From IMG/VR virus record IMGVR_UViG_3300045988_184219: a DNA stretch of 64,000 nucleotides, one strand, 5' to 3'. The stretch is from a virus. The notes under the pieces are model-generated. The model saw only the letters and a program-made list of their open reading frames with translations. It did no database searches and was not told the DNA's origin. A program made the translations under genes and the position numbers. Below are positions 4,167 to 63,032 of this stretch, in pieces; positions within the stretch are counted from its first letter, which is position 1, and every line of letters begins with the position of its first letter.

Positions 4167-4748
4167 TCAAACGATAAGTGCTCCATTGGCGTCAAACGAA
4201 AGATTCAGCTTCTCAATGTACTTCACAACAGAATCATCATTGTTCATATTGTCTAAGAAAACACGCTTCGTCTTCTCGGCAACCTCCGCACAAGCCGCAT
4301 CAAACCACTGAACGAGTAGCGCCTCAATTTCCTCTTTGGCATACTCCTTACCATCCGCGACAACAATCACACCTTGGTCGAGAACGACAGAAGCACTCGT
4401 TTTATGACTCTTACTCCCGCCCTTAACTTCGATAGAGAGGATAGAATCGAGTCCTTCCTCTACTTCAAAGAAAATGAGATCGAGAAGGTTGTCAATATCG
4501 TCACCATCTTCTGCAAACACATAAAAGCGAGCAATATCTATTCCGCCATCAGGAAGGAAAGTCTTCTCTAACACAGAAGAACAAATATCCTCAACGGGAG
4601 CAAAGTTATCATCATAGGGAACATTCCAATAGTAACGCTCAACAATGTCATTCACATGAGAACGGTAGAACGGTGTCTTACGGACGTTCTCGATAGCGAG
4701 TTTCTGAGCGGATTCGCTCAAATCAGAAAAAGAAAAAGTTGTAGGCAT
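4167..4748 (-). CDS. paralog family C protein (193 aa)
   Basis: N-term FSFSDLSESAQKLAIENV and C-term YIEKLNLSFDANGALIV match the ~14-member family. Confidence 0.65.
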   Translation of the reverse strand: MPTTFSFSDLSESAQKLAIENVRKTPFYRSHVNDIVERYYWNVPYDDNFAPVEDICSSVLEKTFLPDGGIDIARFYVFAEDGDDIDNLLDLIFFEVEEGLDSILSIEVKGGSKSHKTSASVVLDQGVIVVADGKEYAKEEIEALLVQWFDAACAEVAEKTKRVFLDNMNNDDSVVKYIEKLNLSFDANGALIV

Positions 4749-6187: not shown

Positions 6188-6358
6188 ACGAAAAGAGCGC
6201 CCCTAGTCATCAGGACGCTCTCTCCGCGAGTTGTTAGTTGGTTTTAGAAAGGAGGATTCGCAACGGTGTTCCCCCGCCGCCCATTCTGCCACCATATCTA
6301 GCCGCTTGGCGACGGGGCACCGTTTGAGCCGTTCTGGGGTTCCGAACTCCCCTCGGCT
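6188..6358 (-). ncRNA. candidate small ncRNA cassette with 16S-3'-end-like tail (GGGGGAACACCGUUGCGAAUCCUCCUUUCUAAAACC) before terminator
   Basis: ORF-free GC-rich segment bounded by promoter-box variant TTTACTATTATAC (6361-6373) and hairpin+U-tract at 6196-6235; paralog at 32810..33005. Confidence 0.45.
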
Positions 6359-6435
6359 CATTTACTATTATACCTGTTTTGAAAATGTGTGCTGGGAGTT
6401 TTGCGCAACGGACGAGATTTTTTTGATAAACCAAA

Positions 6436-7155
6436 GGAAAAAAGAAAACGCCCCGCGACAAGCACGGGACGCTTTTTTGTCCTACTCCTCGGATGCAACT
6501 CACGCAGCACCCTTCCTGTTTCACCGACTACTTACGCGGGTTGTCCGCGACCTTCATCTCCACAGGCGCAACTTCCCCCACAGCAGGACGTACGGGGTAC
6601 AAACGGCACTCGCTCCACCTCTAGCCACAGGATGCGAGTTATTATCGGCTTCTCGGGGCTCACGCGGCGGGGTCACAGGACACCCTCACCCACCAGTTTC
6701 GCTCGCCACACCATCCGCTAATTTATTCCACCGTGGTTAGCCGTCATGAGGTCTTTGCGACGTAATATTTTCTATGTATCATCGTAGTTTATGGAGATTG
6801 CGCTCCAAATTAGTCCGTCACATCGGACGTTTGCCCGCCATCATAATTGCTTCTCCTCTCTAGGTCTTTGAAAACTTTGTTCAAAGTAGGGCTGTTTCCC
6901 GCATATCCGAATTATCGCGGAGCCATTATATCACCCGCCGCACCCCTCCATCGGAGTGCGTCTAGCACGCGGGGATTTTAACATTGTTTAGGCGGCACAG
7001 GGGATGCAGGGGTCGATTCCTGCGTCCTTGTGAGGGATTTGCTATCAGGAGGCTTATCGTTCCTCGCGTGTGCGCCGCAACATCCGCAGCGCGGGGCGAG
7101 TGTCGTGTCCTCTCTGTTCGATCCGCCCACCAACTTCTCGTCGGTGTCCCTCTCG
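6436..7155 (-). ncRNA. candidate large (~720 nt) structured ncRNA, copy 1
   Basis: No credible ORF, high GC, own promoter box TTTATTATAGCAGG at 7161-7174, intrinsic terminator (cguccc gugcuugucgc ggggcg + U-tract) at 6440-6480; ~85% identical paralog at 36500..37232. Confidence 0.5.
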
Positions 7156-7374
7156 ATGGTTTTATTATAGCAGGTTCGAACGAGGATGTGGAGAGTTTTT
7201 GTTAAACCAAAGATTTTCTTTTTGAAAAACTTTGCGGGCGGGGCGTTTGATGCGTGGGAGATGTGGAACGCGACGAAAGATTTTTACTTTTGGTTTATCG
7301 AATCCAACTGAACTGACAAAATCAACTCAGATTTCCGACTCTCCCGATTCGAATTTCTGACAAAAACGACTACT

Positions 7375-7402
7375 TGACAAGCAACTATTCCGACTACATA
7401 AT
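7375..7402 (+). promoter_or_regulatory. consensus sigma-70 promoter on + strand (TTGACA-16-CATAAT)
   Basis: TTGACA 7375-7380, CATAAT 7397-7402; related copies at 58868 and 37366. Confidence 0.55.
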
Positions 7403-7674
7403 CCACGCTATTTAAGATGCACCATTCCTTTGGTCTACCAATACAGACGCAACCAAAAACAAACATAAGTTCTAATAAACAAAAACAAAAAAACAACACA
7501 CCTGCAAAAGCAAGTGTGCCGTTTTTCTTCTCACCCAACAAGCCGCCCATCGCTCAGACACTCTGGGTTACGTCCCGCAAGGTATGTTACTACCATGCCG
7601 TCTGCAAAACACCCATTGTAAAAATCTTCTGCGCTTTGATGGATTTTCGCAAACAAGTCGAACATTTTGGTCTG

Positions 7675-7706
7675 GTTTCAATCCGCGCACCCGCGTAAGG
7701 TGCGAT
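7675..7706 (-). repeat. solitary CRISPR-like repeat unit (type I-C-like): minus strand ATCGCACCTTACGCGGGTGCGCGGATTGAAAC
   Basis: Close to the I-C repeat consensus GTCGCGCCCCGCACGGGCGCGTGGATTGAAAC, with hairpin plus GGATTGAAAC handle; no adjacent spacer or cas. Confidence 0.55.
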
Positions 7707-8044
7707 GGCAACACATAGCCAGATTCGCCAGTCCCAAGCACTCACCCATCCACTCAGTGTACAAAATCGACATTATTTTGAGAATCCGTTTCCACTTACG
7801 CATCCTTGCGTCCGTCCTCTCCGAGAGAAATGGTGCCGATTTTATGATCACTTGAGGTTCGCACTCGGACCGTTTACTTTGGCATATCTCACCGTCATTT
7901 GTGTTGCGGTTGTAAATTTTCGGTCGCCCCGCCCAACGACCTTCTTTTAGTCTATCGCGTCACCCAACCAAGCGACGGATTCGACCTTGCTAGACAATCA
8001 ATCGCCTCACCGCACCTTTCCTTTGGTCTATCAACAAAACATCA
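7707..8044 (-). other. conserved ~330-nt leader-like element abutting the CRISPR-like repeat (copy 1 of 3)
   Basis: Begins GGCAACACATAG; long near-identical blocks shared with 22093..22433 and 62271..62602. Confidence 0.5.
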
Positions 8045-8097
8045 ATTAAAAAAAAGTGTAGCACATTTTAAAAATATTTTTCTCCAAAAAACGAAAA

Positions 8098-8361: not shown

Positions 8362-8915
8362 ACGAAAACACCCCGCCATTGCTGACGGGGAGTCTTCGCT
8401 ATATGGAGATAGTCCTTCGGATGGTTACGGTGGGTTAAGTAGAGTCATGCACCCCACGACTAAAGCCGGGGTTTGTCCCAGCCGACACGCTTCCGAGCGA
8501 TGCGAGGTTCAGACGGTTGAGAGGGAAAGACCCTCCCGACCTCCCTTCGGTGGGCGGAACATAAGTGGCATGACAGCGCCCCGTGCAACGCAGGTCATGC
8601 CTACGTTGCCACATTTTTCAACGAGTGCCTTTGCGCTAAATTCTGCGCCTACAACGGTTCTCTCGTTGCTTAAATTGTACCGTTTTTCAAGGAGATTTTC
8701 AACAACTTTTAAGAAAACATCCTCGAAAAGTAAAGTTTGACCGCGCCGATTCCTCCACATGCCTGAAGGAAGGGGCTTCCTCGGCGATTGAGGTGAGTTT
8801 GGTAAGTCATCTTCTTCAAGGAGTGTGCCACTATGACGAAATGGGCAAAACCGACCGAGAAGGACGCTCTGTGTACAAGACACAAGAGACCACCCGCGAC
8901 TCAATGGAAAGCCAC
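8362..8915 (-). ncRNA. candidate ncRNA cassette E2 (contains the 77-nt block shared with 46456..46532)
   Basis: GC-rich; terminator CCCCGCCATTGCTGACGGGG + T-tract at 8365-8395; the overlapping ORF 8509..8943 has no SD. Confidence 0.35.
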
Positions 8916-21719: not shown

Positions 21720-22076
21720 TTACTTGCGATGGGAATGAGAGATTACCTCATCCAACATAATTACAAGCCAGTCAGGTTTGTTCGTCAGCCTATTGGTCAA
21801 GTGTTCAAGAGAGGCCACTTGTTGCGGGGAGGAAAGTGTGTGATGTTTAACAATCAGAGTTAGCCCACGAACGAGAGCTGTGAGACGTTCGTGGGGAGGC
21901 TTATGCGATTGGACGTTATTGATAAGTGTATCAATTTGCTCGTTGACAAGTTTTTGTTGTTCAACCTGCCAAGTCGCAACCTCTCGTTGAGCGTCAGCAA
22001 GATGACGGCTTTTGGATATGTTTGGGGTTTTCAAAGAGAACACCTTCTTTTTGGCGATGGGTTTCAATCCGCGCAC
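21720..22076 (-). CDS. doubtful ORF (118 aa, no ATG start, no SD), runs into the CRISPR-like repeat
   Basis: Only a GTG start inside the repeat; no cassette. Confidence 0.2.
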   Translation of the reverse strand: MRGLKPIAKKKVFSLKTPNISKSRHLADAQREVATWQVEQQKLVNEQIDTLINNVQSHKPPHERLTALVRGLTLIVKHHTLSSPQQVASLEHLTNRLTNKPDWLVIMLDEVISHSHRK

Positions 22077-22092
22077 CTACAATAGGTACGAT
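22061..22092 (-). repeat. solitary CRISPR-like repeat unit (type I-C-like): minus strand ATCGTACCTATTGTAGGTGCGCGGATTGAAAC
   Basis: Same GCGGATTGAAAC handle and a compensated hairpin as at 7675 and 62075-62270. Confidence 0.5.
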
Positions 22093-22433
22093 GGCAACAC
22101 ATAGAAAGATTCGCCCGTTCCGAGTGCCTTCCACTCCACACAGATCACAAAATCGACGTATTTTAGGGAATCTATTCCCACTATCGCATCCTTGCGACCC
22201 TTCTCGATGAGAGGAAACGAGTCGATTTTATGTTCACTTGAGGTTCACACTCAGACGTTTTCTTTGGCATATCCAACGATTATTTGTGTCGCGGTTGTAA
22301 ATTTTCGGTCGTCCGCGCAAAACGACCTTCTTTTGACCAAATTCACGTCACCCAACCAAACGCCGGGTTCGACCTTACCACACAATCAATCCTCTCACCA
22401 CACCTTTCCTTTAGGCTATCAACAAGACTTCAT
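22093..22433 (-). other. conserved ~330-nt leader-like element (copy 2 of 3)
   Basis: GGCAACACATAG ... CGCATCCTTGCGACC ... GCGGTTGTAAATTTTCGGTCG ... shared with 7707..8044 and 62271..62602. Confidence 0.5.
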
Positions 22434-22529
22434 TTACAGAAAGTGTAACACATATTAAAAATTATTGTTCTGCAAAAAGAAAAACACCTGTCAAGCAAGT
22501 GTTTTTCAAGGAAGAGATTTGAGAAAGAA

Positions 22530-23099: not shown

Positions 23100-23520
23100 A
23101 CCCACTCATTATTATAAAGGTGAGCTATCTTTCCGTTTCATTAATCAAGCTGTTTTATATCAACCAACCATCCTTTTCGTCTTTCCAAGTTCATCATACT
23201 GCTCCACCCAATTCTTCAAATGAGCATCCGCAACAGAGAGAGACACGGACGGATAGCGACGAATACAGTTGCCATTCTTATAATATCGCACTTGAACTCC
23301 CCACGACTCTCATCGCGGGATTCTCGGGTCGTTCGCAACTTAGACACCTTCTCACCGCAAATGAGACGTTGATCCAGTGCCCAGAGGTCGCGAAAAATTA
23401 CCGAGCTATCCCCGTCGTCCCAACGGTTCGGTAAGGCGAAAAGTTCGTTGATAAGCCAAAGGATTAGGCGGATTTGTCGCGAAACTTTTCATCGAGTTCT
23501 ACGAGGAGCCGAAGCCCTTC
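23100..23520 (-). ncRNA. candidate TnpB guide RNA (omega/reRNA) region: 3' end of tnpB plus downstream right end
   Basis: ~400 nt ORF-poor segment downstream of tnpB where IS605-family elements encode their guide RNA; not verified structurally. Confidence 0.3.
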
Positions 23521-24621
23521 GCAGAGAATATTCTGTGCCGCGTTGAGGTCGCGGTCGTGATGATGCCCACACTTCGGGCAGATCCACTCACGCACGCTGA
23601 GTTCCTTGACGGCGGGGTTTTTGAAGCCGCAATTTCCGCAGGTCTGCGAGGAGGCGTAGAACCTGTCCACAGTGAGGAGAACGCGTCCGCGCCAGAGAGA
23701 CTTGTATTCGAGCTGTCGTCTAAGTTCACCCCACGAGGAATCCGCGATGTGACGGGCGAGACAGTGATTCTTTATCATCCCGCTCACGTTGAGGTCTTCA
23801 ATGAAGATAACCCCGTACTTTTTTGTGACAAAGTTCGTTAATTTATGAAGGTAGTCCTCTCGTTGTGCCGCAATTTTTGCGTTCAGCCGTGCCACCTTGA
23901 CCCGAGCCTTCTCGCGACGCGCACTCGACTTTGATTTTCGGTCGAACGAGCGTTGCAGAAATTTCAGGCGATTTAAGGAGGTATTGAGCGGCTTGAGCGC
24001 GTCAAACTGCGTGCCATCGGAGAGGATTGCGAGGTCTTTGATGCCAAGGTCGATGCCGACAGGATCTTCATTGTGCTCCAACACAGGCGCAGGAACGTCG
24101 GTTGCGCAGATCGAAATGTAGTACCGCCCGTCTGGTTCGATACGCACGGTCGCACTGAGGATTCTGCCCTCTGGAATGAGGTTCTTCCCTCCGCGAATCC
24201 GCACCCTGCCGAGCTTCGGAAGCTTGATATGCGTCCCCTCAAACGCGATGTTGTTATTCGTGAAATTCGTCCGATAACTCTGATAGTTGTCGCGTTTGGA
24301 CTTGAAGCGTGGATAACCAAACTTCCTCTTGCGCGACGAGTTGACCGTTCCAAAGAAATTATCATAGGCTTTATCGAGATCGCGAAGGGCGTTCTGTAAC
24401 GCACATTTATCGGGTTCGAGGAGGAACGGGAGTTCACGTTTGAGGTCGGTCAGCCGTTTGCTACACGCGTTGTAACCGAGCGTTTTCTTCGTTTCCGCGT
24501 ATGTGTCGATTCGGAGTCGAAGAAAATAATTGTAAATAAATCGTTTACACCCGAACGTCTTTTTAATCAAGTCACGTTGCTTTGCGTTCGGGTAGGCACG
24601 GTACACGTACCCCTTTTCCAT
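23464..24621 (-). CDS. tnpB: IS200/IS605-family TnpB (RNA-guided RuvC nuclease, OrfB)
   Basis: RuvC-I GIDLGIKD, RuvC-II IFIEDLN, zinc finger CGNCG...CPKCG, RuvC-III RDLNAAQNI; 385 aa; no tnpA. Confidence 0.85.
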   Translation of the reverse strand: MEKGYVYRAYPNAKQRDLIKKTFGCKRFIYNYFLRLRIDTYAETKKTLGYNACSKRLTDLKRELPFLLEPDKCALQNALRDLDKAYDNFFGTVNSSRKRKFGYPRFKSKRDNYQSYRTNFTNNNIAFEGTHIKLPKLGRVRIRGGKNLIPEGRILSATVRIEPDGRYYISICATDVPAPVLEHNEDPVGIDLGIKDLAILSDGTQFDALKPLNTSLNRLKFLQRSFDRKSKSSARREKARVKVARLNAKIAAQREDYLHKLTNFVTKKYGVIFIEDLNVSGMIKNHCLARHIADSSWGELRRQLEYKSLWRGRVLLTVDRFYASSQTCGNCGFKNPAVKELSVREWICPKCGHHHDRDLNAAQNILCEGLRLLVELDEKFRDKSA

Positions 24622-30699: not shown

Positions 30700-31384
30700 A
30701 AAACCATCCTTTCTGAATCAAGAAAACGAACTCGATATATTTATTATATAACAAGGATGGATAGAAAGAAAGATAAACGCCTAGAGGAAGCGAGAAGAAA
30801 AGGGAGGAAGAGAGGAAAAACAGATGTTAAAGAAAACAAAAACTGCGCACCGTTATTTATCGGTACGCAGTTTTCGCGAGTTGGTTTATGTTCCTCGTCA
30901 TTTGACAAGGTAGAAAGGAGGCTTATTTATGCGGAGGGGTCGCTAACAGAAAGGATACGAAACCGTAACAACCAGTTCTCCGCCTGTACCATCGTGCCAT
31001 TACGACCACATGCGCAACTGCTCGGTACAGTTTCTATTATAATCATTGAAAGAGAAGGTATTTGGAGTTTTAATTTTAGATGTGTTTTTTGTTTTCAAAA
31101 CGAAAAAACGCCCCGTGACCATTCGGGACGTTTTTTCTGAGTTGTGTCAACCTATTGCCCACTATGAGCAAGCAGAAAGGAGGATCGAGAAGAGCGGCCA
31201 TTGCCCATCTCGATACACATATATTCTACCACAAACAAAAAAGTTTGTGGAGATATTTTCACAAGACAAGCAAAATTTTCTTTTATATCCGACAAAAACG
31301 ACACCAAACGAGAAAGCCTCAACCTCACGCTAGATGCCGCCGTTTCCTTTGGTTTATCAAATAAGATTAATTCATAAAAGAAAC

Positions 31385-36293: not shown

Positions 36294-36399
36294 TTTTAAT
36301 TCCTCCGCTTTCTTTCGTAGATCAACAAATCATTTCGATAGTTTTATTATATAACAAAATTGATGGATGAGCTGAGGTTTTTCGTTGGGAAAGAGGATT

Positions 36400-36480
36400 T
36401 AATTGGATTAACTCAATTAACAGAGTCTTGTTAATTGAGTTAATCGAGTCAACAAGGTCAACAAGGTCAACAAGGTCAAC
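36400..36480. repeat. AT-rich 17-bp-arm palindrome (GATTAACTCAATTAACA..TGTTAATTGAGTTAATC) followed by GTCAACAAG x4
   Basis: Occupies the position normally taken by the GC hairpin terminator; related TTAATTGAG tandem at 4040-4095. Confidence 0.5.
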
Positions 36481-36499
36481 AATCTTCCCCTTTGGGCTA

Positions 36500-37232
36500 T
36501 AAAAAATGAAAACGCCCTGCGACAAGCACAGGACGTTCTCTCGAACACTTTCCACACAATAAGTCACGGGATCATCCCCCTCGGGATTCAACGGCAACTC
36601 ATTGTACTGCAACCACCGATGTTCACACGGCTGGTATCATCATCCTCGCGCCCCACAACGAGGAAACCACAAGATTTTGGGGCAATATTTGACGGCACTC
36701 GCACCACCTCTAGCCACGCGTGATTTGCAGTTACGAGCGACTTGTCGGGACGTATCTTCGCGGCGGGGTCAACGGGTGTTATGCCCTCTCCCACCATCCA
36801 GTCCACCATCCACTCCTCTTGTGCGTGGTTAGCCGTCATGAGGTCTTTGCGACGTAATGTATGTTATCAGCCGTAGTTTAGGGAGATTGCACTCCGAATC
36901 AGTCTATCACATCGGACGTTTACCCGCCATCATGGTTGCTTCTCCTCTCTAGGTCTTTCAAGCTCTTTTTTCAAAGTAGGGCTGTTTCCCGCTTATCCGA
37001 ATTCTCGCGAAGCCCTTATATCACCCGCCGCACCCCACCATCGGAGTACGTCTAGCACGCGGGGATTTTAACATTGTTTAGGCGGTCGAGGTTGCTCGCG
37101 GAGGTCGATTTCCACGTCCTCGGGAGAGACTCTCAACAGGTGTCTAGCGTTCCTCATGTGCGCCGCTTTAGCTGCGCGGAGTTGCGTCAACCTGCCTGAG
37201 CCGCCTACCAACTTTTCGTCGGTGTCCCTCTC
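36500..37232 (-). ncRNA. candidate large (~730 nt) structured ncRNA, copy 2
   Basis: Paralog of 6436..7155: shared blocks GGTTAGCCGTCATGAGGTCTTTGCGACGTAAT and GTCTAGCACGCGGGGATTTTAACATTGTTTAGGCGG; promoter box 37238-37250; terminator 36510-36545. Confidence 0.5.
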
Positions 37233-37365
37233 GATGGTTTTATTATAGCAGGTTCAAACGAGAATGTGGAGAATTTTTGTTGAGTCGAAGGTTTTTCTTT
37301 TTCGAGAGAGGTGGGAGGTGTCGGGAACCAGTTTCTTTGGCTTATCCTATCCGACTTAACCGACT

Positions 37366-37394
37366 ATGACGGGCGACTTTCCAGACTACATAAT
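37366..37394 (+). promoter_or_regulatory. sigma-70-like promoter on + strand (TATGAC-18-CATAAT)
   Basis: Related to 7375 and 58868; downstream ~85 nt conserved with the 58897 region. Confidence 0.45.
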
Positions 37395-37825
37395 CCACAC
37401 CATCTCAGACAAACCTTTCCCTTGGTCTATCCACAAAAAAACGGCGCACCTGCCACATAACGAGCACGCCGAAATAGTTTCAAAACCCATACACAAATGT
37501 GACAAGGTTAAGTTTGCAGAGCACCGAACGCTTGACTGAGGAGCGCCCGAAGGTTCTCCACGCGTTCACGAACGGGTCATACTGGCGCAACTACGACGCC
37601 CCTACACGCGCACTTTCTTACGTTTCTGCACGCTTACTTTTGCGAGTTTTTATACTCCGACTTTTCTCGTTTGTCGCGCATACCGTCCCATCCTTCTTTT
37701 CGACAAGGCGAACTCGCTTGCGTTTAGTATAACAAAACTTTGCTCGTTTGTCAATAAAAATTTACGTTTGTTTAATGGTTAAGTGAAGTTTTACAATACG
37801 CCTAACAACAAACAATCCCCTTGGT

Positions 37826-38419
37826 TTATCCATTCCGCTCATCCACTTCGTAAATCATTCGTCCATCTTCCGTATAGTCCATGTCCAACTCCTCAAGGTG
37901 CGCCCGAATAGATTCGTCCGAGAAATATTCTTTTGCCTTCTCCTTTACATATCCTTCTGCAAAGTGACCAATAAGGCTCATAATACCCGACACAACATCT
38001 TCCAGTGCGACCAAATCAATCTCTTTCATAGTAAGAGAACATTCGATTCGTCCAGAAGAAAAACCATCCATGTAGATAGCGTCTAAACCAAGAACGTCTC
38101 TCTCATCAAAACTGAACTGCACACGATCCTTGAGTTGCGAGCGAACAAAGTCCTTGAGATCATCTTCGTCTGTACTCTGCAACCGAACCATGACGGAAGG
38201 AATCGGATAATCGTCTTCAATCGACCAGCGGAACGCACTGAACATAGGTTCGATACGAAGAACACTGTATAAGAGTCGGAATCGCTCACATATCGCATCC
38301 TTCACATCAAGACTGATCTTATCAAGTACAGTATCAAGATACCAAACGGAGCGAAACGCTTCCATAATCGCCGTTTTCTGGGCGTCAGGAGAAAGATTTG
38401 TAAAGCTGATTTTCTGCAT
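37826..38419 (-). CDS. paralog family C protein (197 aa; start at MQKISFTNLS)
   Basis: SD GAAAGGAAGGAAAATC; N-term FTNLSPDAQKTAIMEAF; C-term HLEELDMDYTEDGRMIYEV. Confidence 0.65.
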   Translation of the reverse strand: MQKISFTNLSPDAQKTAIMEAFRSVWYLDTVLDKISLDVKDAICERFRLLYSVLRIEPMFSAFRWSIEDDYPIPSVMVRLQSTDEDDLKDFVRSQLKDRVQFSFDERDVLGLDAIYMDGFSSGRIECSLTMKEIDLVALEDVVSGIMSLIGHFAEGYVKEKAKEYFSDESIRAHLEELDMDYTEDGRMIYEVDERNG

Positions 38420-38481
38420 GATTTTCCTTCCTTTCAAAGAGAAAACGGCATATTTTCTTCTATATGCCGTTTCTCATAACC

Positions 38482-39054
38482 TCAAATTTCTTCTTCCGCA
38501 ATCATCCCATCTTCGTAGCACTCAAGATCATTGTTCGCAAGCCAACGTCCGACCTCATAATCAGAGAAATAGTGGTTGATTGCCCCCTGCGCCGCCCTCT
38601 GTGCGTGCTCGCCGATGCGTTTTATAATATGCACAAGTTCTGTTTCCATACGCTCAATAGTTGTGTCCGAGAGACCAGCATAAGCCGTAACCTCAACACC
38701 AACAACCCCGTCGATGTAGCGTATTTTGAGGCGTTGAACGAGCTTGAGTTCGGTCTCCGTAGGAACACCAAAGGAGTCCTTACGAAGTGAAACACCGAGC
38801 CACTGTGCGACGTTCGAGGAGTCGATAGTGACGTTTGCAATAACAAGCGGGTTGCCTTCTGCATCATAACCATCGAACATAGGGCGAACCGAGCTTGAAC
38901 CTTCAGGGAGGCAGAAGGTTTCGTCGATGTCGAGCTCTGCGTCTTGCCGTGCGCTGTCGAGACTCATATTAAGATACTCTGTGCGGTTGCGGAGAGAGTT
39001 CCATGCGATGATGCGCTCATTTGCGCCGAGTTCGCTGTAATTTACTACTTCCAT
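38482..39054 (-). CDS. paralog family C protein (190 aa)
   Basis: C-term WLANNDLECYEDGMIAEEEI. Confidence 0.65.
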   Translation of the reverse strand: MEVVNYSELGANERIIAWNSLRNRTEYLNMSLDSARQDAELDIDETFCLPEGSSSVRPMFDGYDAEGNPLVIANVTIDSSNVAQWLGVSLRKDSFGVPTETELKLVQRLKIRYIDGVVGVEVTAYAGLSDTTIERMETELVHIIKRIGEHAQRAAQGAINHYFSDYEVGRWLANNDLECYEDGMIAEEEI

Positions 39055-39259: not shown

Positions 39260-39838
39260 TTAAAGGACAATATTGCCATTCTTATCAAACTTTACACCAA
39301 CATGTAAGATGTAGTTCACAACCTCTTTATATGACATCAACTTTGCGTTCAGTTGAGCACTCTCGACATAGATTCGCGACACAACGGCAAGCATCCAATG
39401 CTTAATCATTCCCGCCAGTACCCCAAACGACACATCTCCAGCATCCTCGATTGCCAATTCTGCATAAAGATCACAATATACACCTTTTTTGTTGTAACCA
39501 AACGAGATTTTGTCGATAGCACCCGCATCAATAACGCAAGTGACACCTGTCAGAGCTGTAAGGCACTCAAGAAACTTTTCGATGTCATCATAATCCTCCA
39601 AAATGCCGTCAATAGATTGTGCGAAATATCCCCCCGTCATCTCCTCGCGGTCAAAAAACGCCTCAACAAGAGCAACATCTAAACCACGGAGAGATTTCTC
39701 ATATAGAACCTCGTCCACATAATCGCGAACCTTGTCACGCACAATCGCCTGATAGAAAGGTGTCTCTCTGACGTTCTTGACAGCGACTCCTTGAATGTCT
39801 GCTCGAAGGTCATTAAAATTAAAGACTTCTTTTTCCAT
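39260..39838 (-). CDS. paralog family C protein (192 aa)
   Basis: N-term FNFNDLRADIQGVAVKNV, C-term YILHVGVKFDKNGNIVL. Confidence 0.65.
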   Translation of the reverse strand: MEKEVFNFNDLRADIQGVAVKNVRETPFYQAIVRDKVRDYVDEVLYEKSLRGLDVALVEAFFDREEMTGGYFAQSIDGILEDYDDIEKFLECLTALTGVTCVIDAGAIDKISFGYNKKGVYCDLYAELAIEDAGDVSFGVLAGMIKHWMLAVVSRIYVESAQLNAKLMSYKEVVNYILHVGVKFDKNGNIVL

Positions 39839-43476: not shown

Positions 43477-44823
43477 TCACGCGGACTCCCGACGAGGCGA
43501 GTCTGTTGGACGAGCAGCCAAACCAGCACAGGCGATCCTTGTCGGCGCTACCATAATCGGGCGTAGCACAACGCCCTCTATCCCGTCGGCAAACGCGTTC
43601 GGGACTACTTTTTTCACGATCTGCAACGCTCCGTTTACGTCCGCATTCACGCGTGTTCCGTCGTTTGAACGGAATAATCCTCGATGAATACGACGCTTTT
43701 TGTTGTAAAATTCGCGTGTCGGGGGCTCTCCGTCCAGAAATGATGTACCGCTCGTATAGCTTTCTTCTGTTACGACAACAGCTATACCATGTTCATACGC
43801 TTTGTACTCGATCATTTCTATCAATCGGGCGAACGGGAGTCCTACAAAATGCTGGTTCTCCTTCGCCGTGAACGGGGTGCGCTCCTTCCAGTCGCGGTTT
43901 AGACCAATGATAAGTGTCGGAATATTCTGTGCGACGAGGCGATCTACGATGAGGCGCGAGGTCTTGTGCAGGTAATCCTTGAGTTTTGCGTTCCTTTTGT
44001 CAATCAGGCGTTGGATTCTCCGCGTCACTTTCCTCCCATTGAGGTGCTCCGACATCTCACGGAGAGACGCCAAACGCTTGTTGTAGAACTGGTTGATCGA
44101 CTTCGGGATGCGACCGTTTACGATGATCGGAGCGTCCCCCGTGGAGAACGCCATCGTAACGAAGTTGTTTACGCCGAGGTCAATTCCTGCGTATCTCCCG
44201 TTGGGCTTTCTCTGAGGAACTTCCTTGATTCTGTAAACGATTTCAAGGGTGATGAACCCTCCGTGCGGGACAAATCGAACCTGTTGAAACGACTTTATTT
44301 CACGAGGGCTGTTAGTGTCCTCGCGGATGAACTGCGGCTCAACCGTGAACCCCTTGAAAACTTTTGGAAACACGATTTTTCCATCCCGAATTTTACACTC
44401 TTGACTCGTTAAAGTTAGAACGTGCTTTCCATCCTTCTTTAGAAAATGAGGCGGTTTCGGACGACCCTTATACTTTTCAGGGTGCTTTTTCCAATCTTTA
44501 AGTTCTTCCCAAAAACTTTTCCAGTCTGTCACGAGCAAGCGTAAATTCTGCTGTGCGCTCTGTGCCGTCGGCATGTTCCGATAGTCGGGAAAGTCCGTTT
44601 TCGACTTCAGGATTTTGTCAAGTTGTTCATAACTCGACTGTTTCTCGTGCGCGAAAAACTGTTGCCGAAGTAGATAATTCCCTTGATTATAAAGGTTTTT
44701 TGACATGTGACAAAACTCCGCGAGCATTTCATACGCGGGGTGAGTCTCCTTGATGATGTGTTGCTCCACGCGAACAAAGGGATCTTTCTTTTTCTTCGTT
44801 TTTGGCTTTTCTTCCGTTTTCAC
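43477..44823 (-). CDS. TnpB-derived protein lacking zinc finger and RuvC-II Glu (possible nuclease-dead, TldR-like)
   Basis: RuvC-I GIDLGVNN present, DYLHK block aligns with the intact TnpB, RuvC-II position reads IIGLN (no Glu), YTSGTSFLDG replaces the CxxC zinc finger, NADVNGALQI retained; ~200 aa N-terminal extension; standard cassette promoter at 44878-44900; only 67 nt to the next gene. Confidence 0.6.
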   Translation of the reverse strand: MKTEEKPKTKKKKDPFVRVEQHIIKETHPAYEMLAEFCHMSKNLYNQGNYLLRQQFFAHEKQSSYEQLDKILKSKTDFPDYRNMPTAQSAQQNLRLLVTDWKSFWEELKDWKKHPEKYKGRPKPPHFLKKDGKHVLTLTSQECKIRDGKIVFPKVFKGFTVEPQFIREDTNSPREIKSFQQVRFVPHGGFITLEIVYRIKEVPQRKPNGRYAGIDLGVNNFVTMAFSTGDAPIIVNGRIPKSINQFYNKRLASLREMSEHLNGRKVTRRIQRLIDKRNAKLKDYLHKTSRLIVDRLVAQNIPTLIIGLNRDWKERTPFTAKENQHFVGLPFARLIEMIEYKAYEHGIAVVVTEESYTSGTSFLDGEPPTREFYNKKRRIHRGLFRSNDGTRVNADVNGALQIVKKVVPNAFADGIEGVVLRPIMVAPTRIACAGLAARPTDSPRRESA

Positions 44824-46274: not shown

Positions 46275-46690
46275 AGCGCTTTCTTTACGCTGTTTTTGCT
46301 CGTTTTCCTTTGGCTTACAACGCCGATTTTGTAACTCCCAAGTCCATTATGGCAAGGGAGATAGCACCTCGCGCTTCCGAATTGTCGCGAGAGCCGATTA
46401 TTTCCACCCGCCCGCACCTTTCGGCACGATCTAGCGCGCGGGGGATTTACTTAGTCATGCACCCCACGACTAAAGCTAGGGGCTTGTCCCAGCCGACACG
46501 CTTCCGAGCGATGCGAGGTTCAGACGGTTGAGAAGGAGAACGGGGCTCAATTTGCGAGTTGGTTTAGAAAGGAGGCTTTTCCCCGCACACAGTAAAAGCG
46601 GGAATTCATGGAAACCGAGGCTGTGCCCCGCCGAGCCGACATGCCGACGGAAGCCACCCCTAGCTGACAGCCGCATTCTTCGCAGCTACT
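46275..46690 (-). ncRNA. candidate mosaic ncRNA cassette (shares 77-nt block with 8447-8523, GCGCGGGGGATTT module and CCUCCUUUCUAAACC tail)
   Basis: ORF-free GC-rich; promoter-box variant CACATTATAGCGCAAC ~46715; hairpin + T-tract terminator 46270-46305. Confidence 0.4.
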
Positions 46691-54193: not shown

Positions 54194-54452
54194 GTGGAGA
54201 ACGGGTCCCCTTTCTATTTTAATTGATGTATTTATTATATAACTTTTTTCGTCGTTTCGTTAAAATTTCTTGATATGCCAAAGAAAAAGGTTGGCGAGGA
54301 GGCGTTCTGTTTCAAGAGTGATTGGATGGCGGTGAGGAAGATTTTCCTTTGGTCTATCAAAAAACAAAAAAGAAAATGCGCCAAGTTGTCCCAAGCGCAC
54401 AATTTTGTCCAATACTCTGTCCTATTTATCCTAGGAAAGAACTATATATGTC

Positions 54453-55638: not shown

Positions 55639-55896
55639 AACTTCCTTTCACATCAAGATGTTGGATGTATTTATTATATAATTTTTTCGAGAACTGGTTT
55701 TAAAAAAAAGAAAAAAACAATGAAAACCGTTGATCTTTTTGCAAATTTTTGTTCTAACCAACACTCATTTCGCTTTCAAGGTTTCAATCCGCACCCTCCA
55801 AATAAAGAGCGATAACAACATTCAGACTTGTCAAACATAAAACTAACAGAACTTAAAACAAAAGCGACAACCTAGAAAGGTCGCCGCCAATGTAAC

Positions 55897-56433
55897 TTAA
55901 CCGACAATAGATCCGTTTTCAGTGAAAACCGTATCGAACTCTTGGAAGTAGTCGATCACACATTCATCAGAGTACAACTCCTCAAACCACTTAGGCAAGA
56001 GCTCTGTGTTAAGTTTGTTGATGAAACTCTCAAAAACCGCAAAAACCCGTCTTTCGATTTCCTTTGTGTCGCCATTGTCACAACGCACAGAAATCTCTAC
56101 GCGCCCGTTCTCACGAAACTCGAACTCAATATCCCGAACATTAAGGCTCTTTCGCCAGTCACCGCCAACGAGATCATAAATCTCGCGGTAGTCACTTATA
56201 GACGTTGCACTCCCCTTGAGATGTCGAACGTGAACACGAGGAACACCACCAACAAACTCTGGTTCAGAGAGAGCGAAATCGAATAGACGACGTGAGATTG
56301 GAGACTCCTCAAACACTCGTTCACGTACCATATCGCGAGAGCGTCGGTAGTAGAAGCCACCAGCCTTCATATTGTCAAGAACACGACGTTGAATATCGGG
56401 TGAGAGTCCCGAAAACGAAACAAGATTTTCCAT
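55897..56433 (-). CDS. paralog family C protein (178 aa; start at MENLVSFSGLS)
   Basis: SD GGAGGATGTTTT before ATG 56433; C-term FQEFDTVFTENGSIVG. Confidence 0.65.
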   Translation of the reverse strand: MENLVSFSGLSPDIQRRVLDNMKAGGFYYRRSRDMVRERVFEESPISRRLFDFALSEPEFVGGVPRVHVRHLKGSATSISDYREIYDLVGGDWRKSLNVRDIEFEFRENGRVEISVRCDNGDTKEIERRVFAVFESFINKLNTELLPKWFEELYSDECVIDYFQEFDTVFTENGSIVG

Positions 56434-56548
56434 AAAACATCCTCCATTCAAAACCAAGAAAACAAATCTCTACAACGATTATACAACAAACCAACACATA
56501 GAAAAACAAAAACGGCGACTTTCCAATGCCGCCGTAATCGTTCACAAC

Positions 56549-57324: not shown

Positions 57325-57945
57325 CTAATTCCGCGCAGGAAGATCGTAGACAAGAGAACCATCCGCATCAAACAGATACCCCAATCCATCCTCGATCCAA
57401 GACATAATCGCACCATCCGTGTAGTATTCATCAATCATCTCAGATAGAGCCACATTTTCAGAGCGAACATACTTCTGCAACTCAACGAGAATATCCGTCT
57501 CAATTCGCCCGACCTCAATCTCGTCACCACCAAGAGCAACGACAGCGACCATTTCGCGGTTGTAATCCTGACCAACAACACCGACAATACTCGTCACATT
57601 GAGGTAATCATAGACAACATCCAAACCGAGCTCCTTTAGGAGATCCCACACAGAGTCGGGAGTATGTGCGGAAACAACCATTCTCTCAATGCGATAATTC
57701 GGAGTTCCATCGGGAGCATAACGATCAACCGATTCATCCATCGTACCGAGGCAGAGTGAGAAATCAACACCACAATCGGCAACAAGAAAGCCTTCTTTGA
57801 GGCGACGAACGAGATCGGGGTAGACGTAACCGTGGTAGAGGTACTTGTTCTTTCCACTGCGGAACGATTCAATGACCTCCCGCCGCACAGCGGGAGAGAG
57901 TACGCCGAACTTGATAGGGTTGGAGATGCGTTTGATTTCTGTCAT
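57325..57945 (-). CDS. paralog family C-like protein (206 aa; start at MTEIKRISN)
   Basis: SD AGAAAGGAAAATCAAC before ATG 57945; C-term WIEDGLGYLFDADGSLVYDL. Confidence 0.6.
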   Translation of the reverse strand: MTEIKRISNPIKFGVLSPAVRREVIESFRSGKNKYLYHGYVYPDLVRRLKEGFLVADCGVDFSLCLGTMDESVDRYAPDGTPNYRIERMVVSAHTPDSVWDLLKELGLDVVYDYLNVTSIVGVVGQDYNREMVAVVALGGDEIEVGRIETDILVELQKYVRSENVALSEMIDEYYTDGAIMSWIEDGLGYLFDADGSLVYDLPARN

Positions 57946-58073
57946 GTTGATTTTCCTTTCTGATGTCATTAACTAACTTTGTGTATTTATTATATAACTT
58001 TATTATGTTTTGTGTGGAGTGTTTTCGATAGACCAAAGGAAAAGCGCACCCAATTTGAGTGCGCCATTTTTCC

Positions 58074-61013: not shown

Positions 61014-61481
61014 TTAAGCCACTAATGCGACACTCGCGCACTGTACGCAAGCGCGAAGAAAACGGTCAGCCTCAACGAGTCCCATACTCTCCTGAGAGAT
61101 GATAAATCCATTGAGAGCAAAGACAACTTCAACTCGTTTCCCCGTAACGTGCAACAGCACATCACTCACATCAACCATCTCTGTGGTAGAACGGTCGATT
61201 CGGACGGAGTAAGAGGGATAGGGCTTAGTTTGAGCAGAAGGATAGTGTTCGACGATCTGAATAAAATTCTGGTAGACCGACGTGACACTCCACTCATTCT
61301 TCTCATCCGCAACGACCTCAGAGATGGTTTTGTAGACAGTATGATTTTGAAGAGTTCCGCCGATGTCGCCATTATAGAAAGGCTTATGTGTCTTATTGTC
61401 AGGCGTTCCGTGCCAACCGTAGATGTGGGTTGCGCCGTTGGTCTTAGCGAGTGTGCCGAGGGTTTTCTGGATGATGTTCAT
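61014..61481 (-). CDS. hypothetical protein (155 aa; start at MNIIQKTLG)
   Basis: SD GAAAGGAGAAAAACA before ATG 61481. Confidence 0.55.
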   Translation of the reverse strand: MNIIQKTLGTLAKTNGATHIYGWHGTPDNKTHKPFYNGDIGGTLQNHTVYKTISEVVADEKNEWSVTSVYQNFIQIVEHYPSAQTKPYPSYSVRIDRSTTEMVDVSDVLLHVTGKRVEVVFALNGFIISQESMGLVEADRFLRACVQCASVALVA

Positions 61482-61494
61482 TGTTTTTCTCCTT

Positions 61495-61947
61495 TCAAGC
61501 AAGCGCGATAATACAGAATCGCTGGAACAACTCAATAGCTTTATCTTCTTTGACAACATTTAAATCGTCAGAGATAAGAAAACCTTCTGTCCGAACCTCG
61601 ATTTCTTCCGAACCTGCGATGGGGGTGAGTTCTATAACCTCAAGACTAGGGCGGTTAATATCAGGAGAGATCTCAACACGGAATCCGTGCTCGAAAACAC
61701 TGTATTGGACACGAACAATTCCTTTGAGTGTTTTAATGCCGATACGCCAAGAGTAGCGTTCCTCCTTGATCGCACGAAGGAATGAAGCGAGAGAAGGTGT
61801 GCCGTTGAGTATTTCTCCGCGAGGAGCCTCATCTTCGAGTACGCCACGCTCATAATCGGGCTGGTGAGGTAGGCGGTGGTCGTAGATGTACTTAATGATG
61901 TCCAAAGAGGAGATGAATGAGTGGATGGCGGAGTGAAGTTTTGTCAT
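61495..61947 (-). CDS. hypothetical protein (150 aa)
   Basis: SD AGAAAGGATAG before ATG 61947; cassette block 61975-62005. Confidence 0.55.
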   Translation of the reverse strand: MTKLHSAIHSFISSLDIIKYIYDHRLPHQPDYERGVLEDEAPRGEILNGTPSLASFLRAIKEERYSWRIGIKTLKGIVRVQYSVFEHGFRVEISPDINRPSLEVIELTPIAGSEEIEVRTEGFLISDDLNVVKEDKAIELFQRFCIIALA

Positions 61948-62074: not shown

Positions 62075-62270
62075 GTTTCAATCCGCGCACTCCATACAGA
62101 GTGCGATTTTGCGCTCAATGGCTTTATTGTCTCTCAGGTTTCAATCCGCGCACCCACGAAGGGTGCGATGGGCATAATTTCAACCCACACTACCTATACG
62201 GGTAGTGTTCTCTTTACACTGAGCACAATAGAATCGGGTTTCAATCCGCACGCCCTATACGGGGCGTGAT
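62075..62270 (-). CRISPR. mini CRISPR-like array, type I-C-like repeats: R1 62075-62107, spacer 62108-62137 (30 nt), R2 62138-62169, degenerate repeat ~62178-62207, spacer ~62208-62237, R3 62238-62270 (leader-proximal)
   Basis: Minus-strand repeats ATCGCACTCTGTATGGAGTGCGCGGATTGAAAC / ATCGCACCCTTCGTGGGTGCGCGGATTGAAAC / ATCACGCCCCGTATAGGGCGTGCGGATTGAAAC; constant GCGGATTGAAAC handle, hairpin stems kept by compensatory changes; no cas genes in the window. Confidence 0.55.
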
Positions 62271-62602
62271 GGCAACACATAGCAAAATTAACCAAATCCG
62301 CGCACTCACTACTCCACTCACCCATCAAAATCGACGTAATTTAGGAAATCCATTCCCGATCACGCATCCTTGCGTCGATCCTCTCCGAGAGAAACGTGTC
62401 GATTTTATGTTCGTTTAGGATTCGCACTAAAACTGTCCTTTGGCTAATCCAACCGTCATTTTTGTGTTGCGGTTGCAAGATTTCGGTCGCCACCGCCAAA
62501 CGACCTTCTTTTGGTCAAATTCACGTCGCCCAACCAAGCGACGGGTTCGACCTTGCTAGACAATCAACGGTCTCACCGAACCTTTCCCATTGGTCTATTA
62601 AC
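62271..62602 (-). other. conserved ~330-nt leader-like element (copy 3 of 3) adjacent to the mini-array
   Basis: GGCAACACATAG ... CGCATCCTTGCGTCGATCCTCTCCGAGAGAAA ... GCGGTTGCAAGATTTCGGTCGCC ... shared with copies at 7707 and 22093. Confidence 0.5.
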
Positions 62603-62702
62603 AAAACATCATTTACAGAGAGTGTAGCACAGATTCAAAAGAGTTTCCTGCAAAAAAGAAAAACCAACACATGATTTTTAAAATATGTGTTGGTTCTCGA
62701 CA

Positions 62703-63032
62703 TCAATCCGAAAGAGCAATCTTGAGGACGGAAACTGTCAGGGTCTCAAGGCTGATGAAGTGGTTGTATACCTCGTGGTATCCAGCATCATGCCCAGACT
62801 CCCACGCTTCGGCGAAAACTTCGTCGAAGATGGCGCGACCTCTCTCCATGCCAGCGAACTCGGAGTTCTTAAACACCAATGTCTTAAACTCCTCGTAGAC
62901 CTCACCAAGCCTACGGTTGTAGTCCCGATGAACGCCCGTAATCCCTTCGGTTGGAATGAGGCTTTTGTCCATATGGATAGTCCCAGCCTTAACCTCAAGC
63001 ACTCTCACCTCATCATAGATGTCTTTCTTCAT
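62703..63032 (-). CDS. hypothetical protein (109 aa)
   Basis: SD GAAAGGAGCG before ATG 63032. Confidence 0.55.
   Translation of the reverse strand: MKKDIYDEVRVLEVKAGTIHMDKSLIPTEGITGVHRDYNRRLGEVYEEFKTLVFKNSEFAGMERGRAIFDEVFAEAWESGHDAGYHEVYNHFISLETLTVSVLKIALSD

Follow-up and report, generated by a model that had tools for sequence, protein, structure and literature searches.

The window analyzed herein, which comprises 64,000 nucleotides (nt) of the IMG/VR record IMGVR_UViG_3300045988_184219, carries five strong clustered regularly interspaced short palindromic repeat (CRISPR) units of the type I-C class, all of which are on the minus strand; two are solitary and three form a mini-array at 62 kb. 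The two solitary repeats had been flagged in an initial annotation of the sequence as candidate RNA anti-CRISPRs or orphan leader-repeat relics, and their coordinates proved to be correct, with neither a second repeat nor spacers at 7.7 kb or 22 kb. Two further units, a decayed hairpin within the mini-array and a sixth, degenerate repeat, were not part of that account. The units are as follows.

7675-7706, minus strand: solitary type I-C repeat, ATCGCACCTTACGCGGGTGCGCGGATTGAAAC, with a 7-bp hairpin and an 11-nt handle (covariance model E=2.2e-11).
22061-22092, minus strand: solitary type I-C repeat, ATCGTACCTATTGTAGGTGCGCGGATTGAAAC (covariance model E=3.1e-9).
62238-62270, minus strand: leader-proximal repeat of the mini-array, ATCACGCCCCGTATAGGGCGTGCGGATTGAAAC (covariance model E=3.8e-7).
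62138-62169, minus strand: second repeat of the mini-array (covariance model E=7e-12).
62075-62107, minus strand: distal repeat of the mini-array, with a terminator hairpin directly after it (covariance model E=8.6e-7).
62177-62209, minus strand: decayed repeat-like hairpin within the 67-nt "spacer" of the 62-kb array, recognized by reading the sequence (weak covariance model E=6.7).
55781-55813, minus strand: leaderless degenerate solitary repeat, ATCGCTCTTTATTTGGAGGGTGCGGATTGAAAC, with a hairpin of -6.6 kcal/mol (covariance model E=0.0023).

The covariance model was trained on 21 repeats, 12 of which were from the element family and 9 from cellular arrays, and in the 64 kb it returned the five strong units at E-values between 7e-12 and 9e-7, one extra degenerate unit, and nothing else notable. 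The plus-strand sequence at 7675, 22061, 62075, 62138, and 62238 reads GTTTCAATCCGCGCACC..., and the 16-mer GTTTCAATCCGCGCAC had 8 matches at three or fewer mismatches in a scan of the window, versus 0.41 expected by chance. The minus-strand reading, which is the functional one, is ATCGCACC-loop-GGTGCGCGGATTGAAAC, also written as (A)TCGCACC-loop-GGTGCGCGGATTGAAAC, such that each unit consists of a 7-8-bp hairpin followed by an 11-nt tail, the handle. All five strong units conform to the pattern of a repeat of ~32 nt with an internal hairpin of 6-8 bp and a 3' tail of ...GGATTGAAAC/T that provides an 11-nt 5' handle, and together with 24 variants from related contigs they all fold as a hairpin with an invariant handle. 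In the stem of the 21 repeats, two-sided changes were present in 4 of the 7 pairs, and the observed covariation score was reached by none of the 500 shuffles; the compensated stem variants within the element family are CGCACCC/GGGTGCG, CGCACTC/GAGTGCG, CACGCCC/GGGCGTG, and CGCCACC/GGTGGCG.

The proposal in the initial annotation that these repeats are I-C-like was borne out by a bacterial genome (L049) in which an array with repeats ending in ...GCGCGGATTGAAAC is located directly downstream of Cas8c/Csd1, Cas7/Csd2, Cas4, Cas1c, and Cas2 on the same strand. This placement assigns the class to type I-C and identifies the minus strand of the window as the CRISPR RNA (crRNA) strand. Near-identical repeats are also present in the cellular I-C arrays L052 and L234.

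Each leader-associated unit is preceded by a module of ~420 nt, which comprises a promoter-like motif and a ~340-nt non-coding leader. The components in the window are as follows.

7707-8048, minus strand: leader copy at 7.7 kb, ~340 nt, non-coding, with a predicted fold and a putative 5' end (nhmmer E=7e-119).
22093-22435, minus strand: leader copy 2 (nhmmer E=4e-117).
62271-62614, minus strand: leader copy 3, with the promoter-like motif at 62621-62631 (nhmmer E=4e-113).
8055-8065, minus strand: promoter-like motif TGTGCTACACT, similar to an extended -10 (TGnTACACT) and near-invariant in 12 of 12 copies.
22442-22452, minus strand: promoter-like motif TGTGTTACACT, located after the terminator of the upstream gene (22479-22507), as identified in the leader alignment.

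The ~330-nt flank that had been described as leader-like and common to all three loci aligned at 74-83% identity, and its location upstream of the repeat on the minus strand is the position of a leader. Conservation was found to run ~80 nt further upstream than had been described, up to the near-invariant TGTGCTACAC (extended -10-like, TGnTACACT), and this motif and the repeat mark the limits of the conserved module. The mean column identity was 81% in an alignment of 12 leader copies (A2), and the 15-nt leader-repeat junction CTATGTGTTGCCATC was identical in 12 of 13 copies. The possibility that the conserved element is part of a protein-coding gene, which had been raised as a challenge to the leader interpretation, was not supported: no conserved sense-strand open reading frame (ORF) was found in the leader, indels were mostly not multiples of three, and variable sites were spread evenly over the three phases. 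Several copies have long antisense stop-free frames, which we attribute to a composition effect because the frames differ between copies and substitutions have no 3-periodicity. The leader appeared by eye to be built of degenerate repeats (a hairpin with GATTGA-like tails was suggestive); however, the repeat covariance model found none in any leader at E<=10. The motif GATAGACCAAAGGAAA occurs at ~20 sites in the window in both orientations (e.g., 8017-8035, 22405-22423, 62584-62602, and 54246-54361) as well as at 1760-1840 in the related contig L043. Inverted pairs of the motif give rise to intergenic hairpins of ~90 nt, and in the sense orientation the motif resembles a gene 5' untranslated region with a ribosome-binding site and also starts every leader.

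The module was compared across the window and eight related contigs, namely, the 145-kb IMG/VR contig L004 and seven metagenome contigs. These relatives were obtained by a junction-pattern search, which yielded one IMG/VR contig and seven metagenome contigs, all seven of which were true homologues; three further IMG/VR patterns found no relative besides L004. A profile search identified 13 full leader copies (three in the window and ten in the relatives) and two fragments. A single repeat is present in five of the 13 modules (the two in the window, one in L004, and two loci in L043), while the other eight have 2-5 repeats separated by spacers that are mostly 30-36 nt in length, which is the native range of type I-C (PMC5602111). 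In L038, L039, L041, and L044, repeats 1 and 2 are identical around a unique spacer of native length and are followed by divergent older repeats, an arrangement that, as judged from the sequences, is the signature of spacer acquisition at the leader end. At the 62-kb locus of the window, the repeats are not identical to each other, and one of the spacings is irregular. The array also varies in size at a single position: at the locus that is syntenic with the 62-kb array and has the same flanking genes, L004 has one repeat, L042 has two, and the window has three and the decayed one.

Modules occupy at least seven positions in the mosaic relatives, and where one is present in one genome and absent from another, as in the comparison of a module in L043 with window position 30904, homology resumes at or within 1-2 bases of the end of the last repeat. 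The segment at 30835-31050 on the minus strand of the window, which is the exact position of the leader and repeat in L043, consists of a promoter-like site and, downstream of it, a strongly folding RNA-like segment of ~130 nt (z=-5.9), with the 3' trailer and terminator in common. In L004 (123-258 and 2568-2642), one leader copy is split after ~140 nt by an IS605-family TnpB element, and a second leader fragment is fused to a decayed repeat.

These comparisons bear on the suggestion that the solitary units are decaying remnants, i.e., arrays stripped of spacers or passive recombination scars that are now functionless. Spacers are commonly lost through repeat-repeat recombination, the 7.7-kb repeat abuts a truncated gene, and L004 contains both the interrupted leader copy and the leader fragment fused to a decayed repeat. 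However, both solitary units are conserved in their leader, junction, hairpin, and handle to the same degree as spacer-bearing copies, solitary copies recur at several loci in relatives (L004 and the two loci in L043), and the copies that have truly decayed, such as the L004 fragment and the hairpin at 62177-62209, are different. Since the solitary units are conserved in the same manner as spacer-bearing copies and decaying copies are not, we consider a relic origin to be very improbable, and this part of the initial annotation was not upheld. All 13 full leaders retain an intact repeat amid otherwise mosaic flanks, and this, together with the near-uniform junction, indicates at the level of sequence conservation that the solitary units are under selection.

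The spacers of two arrays were placed on relatives, and the corresponding sites are as follows.

62108-62137, minus strand: distal spacer of the 62-kb array, which matches an L004 gene at 29 of 31 positions (L004 6964-6994) and the window's own copy at 26 of 30.
61092-61121, plus strand: the window's own diverged protospacer copy, with 4-5 mismatches and the flank CTC, inside the gene at 61014-61559 on the minus strand (spacer comparison).
62871-62903, plus strand: protospacer matched at 31 of 33 positions by the single spacer of the syntenic L042 array, with the flank CTT (spacer comparison).

The L004 gene matched by the distal spacer is ~1 kb from the L004 array, and the protospacer at 62871-62903 is located just upstream of the window's own 62-kb cassette. 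CTC and CTT are both functional protospacer adjacent motifs (PAMs) in type I-C interference, while TTC is the canonical acquisition PAM (PMC5602111). The remaining spacers had no match in the sequences of the window and its relatives or in INPHARED phages, and one spacer core had no exact match in IMG/VR. None of 1,648 spacers from the arrays that were retrieved matched the element. The 40 nt 3' of each solitary repeat had no second-site match beyond syntenic homologues, and a crRNA-like function of the sequence after the solitary repeats was rejected for that reason. For each of the two placed spacers, the upstream repeat ends in the base (C or T) that also ends the protospacer 5' flank (62107/61091 and L042 5032/62870), which looks as if the base had been brought in with the spacer, in two cases only.

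We consider the solitary units at 7.7 and 22 kb to be, more likely than not, zero-spacer members of a multi-copy family of cas-less type I-C cassettes that are used in conflicts between related elements. The cassette would consist of the promoter-like motif, the ~340-nt conserved structured leader, and at least one repeat, and would be dispersed over the element; the 62-kb locus would be the same cassette filled with spacers. Cas proteins provided in trans, whether host-encoded or from a part of the element that was not sampled, may insert spacers at the leader-repeat junction, the cassette transcript may then be processed at the repeat hairpins, and the resulting crRNAs may act against closely related competing elements. 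What was observed directly is the anatomy of the module, its conservation in multiple copies, the differing size of the array at one syntenic locus, the signature of acquisition, and the matches of spacers to relatives.

The flagged units had also been proposed to be RNA anti-CRISPRs (Racrs), and, as the initial annotation stated, a type I-C class of these is on record, with RacrIC1 being a validated type I-C RNA anti-CRISPR (Camara-Wilpert et al., 2023, PMC10651486). As a decoy of this type, an abundant leader-repeat transcript would be produced, and its repeat hairpin would titrate Cas5c and Cascade subunits of a I-C host and shield the element. Similar to a Racr, the repeats at 7675-7706, 22061-22092, and 55781-55813 are single CRISPR-repeat mimics in a cas-less mobile element with no cas association; the hairpin and handle are perfectly kept, solitary modules account for 5 of the 13, and a non-targeting crRNA alone has been shown to lower interference by competition (PMC10651486). 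On the other hand, solitary repeat units of viruses are described as frequently having a promoter immediately in front of them, and racr candidates as frequently clustering with acr genes (PMC10651486), whereas the only conserved promoter-like motif here is ~350 nt upstream of both flagged repeats with the long conserved leader in between, and no acr-like neighbor was recognized, all neighbors being ORFans. The same module heads spacer-bearing arrays in relatives, and spacers require a working Cascade; moreover, the junction motif is conserved as for an integration site. Considering the conserved 340-nt leader, the integration-type junction, and the targeting use of the same cassette, a Racr function does not appear to be the primary role of the flagged units, and we regard it as a minority explanation that is unlikely. 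Because abundant repeat RNA of any sort competes for Cas proteins (PMC10651486), a decoy side effect is possible and is compatible with the use of these cassettes between related elements. The leaderless unit at 55781-55813, which lies ~50 nt past the terminator at 55888-55863 and ahead of a T-rich stretch, is a closer fit to the Racr layout than either flagged unit, and is the better candidate and the most Racr-like unit in the window.

Regarding the leader itself, the consensus fold of the 12 copies was markedly more stable than that of column-shuffled alignments on the sense (crRNA) strand (z=-8.0) vs the antisense strand (z=-2.5), and the single-sequence fold had a z-score of -2.75. In the 92 predicted pairs, 95.8% of cells were paired, and the variation consisted mostly of transitions that stay G-U compatible on the sense strand only. 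Furthermore, there is complementarity between an invariant 8-mer, GCAACACA, and the junction TGTGTTGC, which is likewise invariant, and base pairing is possible between the 5' segment GGTGCGGTG and the 5' half of repeat 1. No homology of the leader to cellular I-C leaders was detected by nhmmer in 120 genome loci and 48 IMG/VR cas7 loci (~170 loci holding or flanking I-C arrays); Rfam gave no match for the whole window at the gathering score, and relaxing the threshold to E<=10 for the element yielded nothing beyond a weak CRISPR-DR9 match, on the repeat. Considering this strong strand-specific stability and the unsupported covariation described below, an RNA structure on the crRNA strand is likely, but not proven.

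These properties may also be read as those of a functional product, in which the leader is a structured RNA of ~340 nt and of a new kind, the I-C repeat serves it as a signal for 3'-end processing or Cas docking, and the arrays are secondary; possible roles include the gating of first-crRNA maturation and those of an antiterminator or a stabilizer. However, the covariation lacks statistical support, the structure was scored on the alignment from which it was derived, and the leader-repeat pairing fails to co-vary where the repeat stem has changed (the 62-kb copy in the window and L044). No complete leader was found without a repeat, and truncated leaders accompany decayed repeats, which suggests that the leader is not autonomous; we consider a role as an independent product to be quite improbable.

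A more far-reaching proposal is that the leader is a structured RNA specific to mobile-element CRISPR cassettes that gives them an edge over host arrays, and that the cassettes are a CRISPR-guided allele-replacement, or homing-like, device. The edge may be gained through control of the exposure of the first repeat by the predicted pairing between the leader 5' segment and the repeat, or through favored Cas loading or spacer insertion. Since the cassettes target array-flanking genes in relatives, they could act in a homing-like manner, in which cleavage beside the cassette of a rival may be followed by repair from the carrier genome. We offer this proposal as speculation and consider it to be unlikely.

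Several observations weigh against the interpretation of these modules as cas-less cassettes used between related elements. Their transcription, processing, and interference are predictions from sequence. A simple scan found no canonical sigma-70 -35/-10 pair, and the promoter is therefore one that we infer. Half of the multi-repeat arrays have non-identical first and second repeats, such that later recombination or mutation needs to be assumed, and irregular spacings of 7, 22, and 28 nt occur around the decayed 62-kb repeat and in L038. Two-sided changes were found in only 3 of the 92 leader pairs and did not exceed the shuffle control, and the leader structure is supported by energy z-scores and one-sided G-U changes. 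Targets were placed for only 2 of ~15 spacers, and the flanks of these targets are not the canonical acquisition PAM. The comparison with host leaders involved unrelated bacteria only, and the supply of Cas proteins in trans is putative.

The closest parallel is provided by the Saccharolobus viruses SPV1 and SPV2, which carry cas-less virus-borne mini-arrays with spacers against close relatives and targets near the array (Medvedeva et al., 2019, PMC6858448). As in these viruses, short leader-bearing arrays with no cas genes found occur here in a mobile element. The SPV arrays consist of 1-2 spacers behind a promoter-bearing leader and are at the same position in related genomes with different spacers; relatives are similarly targeted near the array, the carrier has mutations in its own copy, and stand-alone repeats are also present. 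The match to relatives with a mutated own site derives in the present case from the 2 spacers that were placed. In contrast to SPV1 and SPV2, the present system is of the bacterial-type I-C and has at least three leader cassettes per 64 kb at variable positions, and its ~340-nt leader is predicted to be structured and is dissimilar to all of the cellular I-C leaders that were examined; SPV leaders, for their part, are similar to those of the host.

The cassettes share with chromosomal type I-C arrays the 32-33-nt repeat, the 7-bp hairpin, the GGATTGAAAC handle, the 30-36-nt spacers, the duplication of the leader-proximal repeat, and the conserved leader-repeat junction. They differ in that no adjacent cas operon was found in the window or in the IMG/VR scans described below, and in that the repeats differ within an array. 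The bacterial I-C leader of L049, which is the only one with a length that was read, is <100 nt vs ~340 nt here; many bacterial I-C leaders have a GGTTCGCG motif ~55 nt upstream of repeat 1, and none is present at that position here; and low-GC I-C arrays have AT-rich upstream flanks, while the present leader has a GC content of ~48%. A likeness to CreA/CreR (Shmakov et al., 2023) was also considered: a stand-alone repeat with non-spacer sequence could yield a crRNA-like RNA, and the 22-kb repeat lies within the 5' region of an ORF from which no terminator separates it. However, those RNAs lie inside cas loci and partially match the promoters that they regulate, whereas there is no cas locus here and the 40 nt after each solitary repeat matches only syntenic homologues.

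Among the window ORFs of at least 70 aa, nearly all of which were scanned (a few apparently spurious ones were omitted), Pfam identified no Cas family. The matches obtained were an SNF2 helicase, a C5 methylase, two IS605-type TnpB proteins, an HTH transposase, a Band 7 protein, AAA_33, HTH_3, and DUF4314, the rest being ORFans, and 1 of the 10 proteins tested had a match in PHROGs. Motif-based IMG/VR scans for I-C Cas7 and Cas1c returned 48 and 22 contigs, respectively, and L004 was in neither set; with no Cas family in the window, the arrays are orphan as far as is visible. The only basis for the viral nature of the element is the IMG/VR label of L004. The leader-repeat junction pattern had no match in 185,579 species genomes, while a genome scan with the repeat only gave mostly Verrucomicrobiota and Planctomycetota among the matches listed. 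A literature search on the repeat sequence returned nothing informative, a plasmid search with the 62-kb array region gave only two weak Paenibacillus matches, and two window proteins had no exact match on record.

The 7.7-kb unit follows the terminator of the upstream gene and then its own promoter-like motif, and is closed by the following feature.

7487-7528, minus strand: intrinsic terminator ending the 7.7-kb unit (terminator scan).

Between the 7.7-kb repeat and this terminator are the last 44 codons of a truncated paralog gene, which abut the repeat; the full gene is present at the same locus in L043. The 22-kb unit begins after the terminator at 22507-22479 and continues into the 106-codon ORF at 21720-22040 with no intervening terminator. 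The truncated gene is a member of a family of at least eight paralogous ~190-aa proteins encoded on the minus strand (e.g., 4167-4748, 37826-38437, 38482-39054, 39260-39838, 55897-56457, and 57325-57969), which share an N-terminal xFSDLSxxAQxxAIxNVR-like motif; the members that were scanned had no Pfam match and the three that were tested had no PHROG match. A highly conserved promoter-like box, GTTATATAATAAA (minus strand), is found at no fewer than 18 sites in the window, ahead of most small minus-strand genes, many of which are also preceded by terminator-TTTTCTCTTTTGGTCTAG. The IS605-type TnpB genes are at 23464-24621 and 43477-44823 on the minus strand, the first of which is ~1 kb upstream of the 22-kb leader; no link was found between the RNA of this TnpB and the 22-kb leader. 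An ORF-poor element of ~1.1 kb, which has the highest GC content in the window and no Rfam match, is present twice (6231-7445 and ~36300-37440) and also in relatives (L043 39-1252), the two window copies being 94% identical over 121 nt and otherwise ~79%. The ORF-poor stretch that lies upstream of the leader at 7.7 kb contains a short repeated segment (8443-8786), further copies of which are found at 46454-46537 and in relatives (L043 5625-5794 and 12563-12899, and L040 634-766), one of them just upstream of a leader.

Virus-borne mini-arrays and solitary repeat units are already known in kind; cas-less intervirus mini-arrays have been documented mainly in archaeal viruses, and the phage examples reported previously were described as leaderless (PMC6858448). 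What is new in the present study is a bacterial-type I-C case with full leaders, in which several dispersed cassettes per genome exhibit presence/absence and size polymorphism and include an empty state, as well as a long, apparently structured leader for which no cellular counterpart was found. An RNA anti-CRISPR should not be the default interpretation of a lone repeat in a mobile element; the choice between the readings is decided by its upstream context and orthologous loci. The leader represents a candidate new RNA that may be directly tested in a tractable type I-C host.

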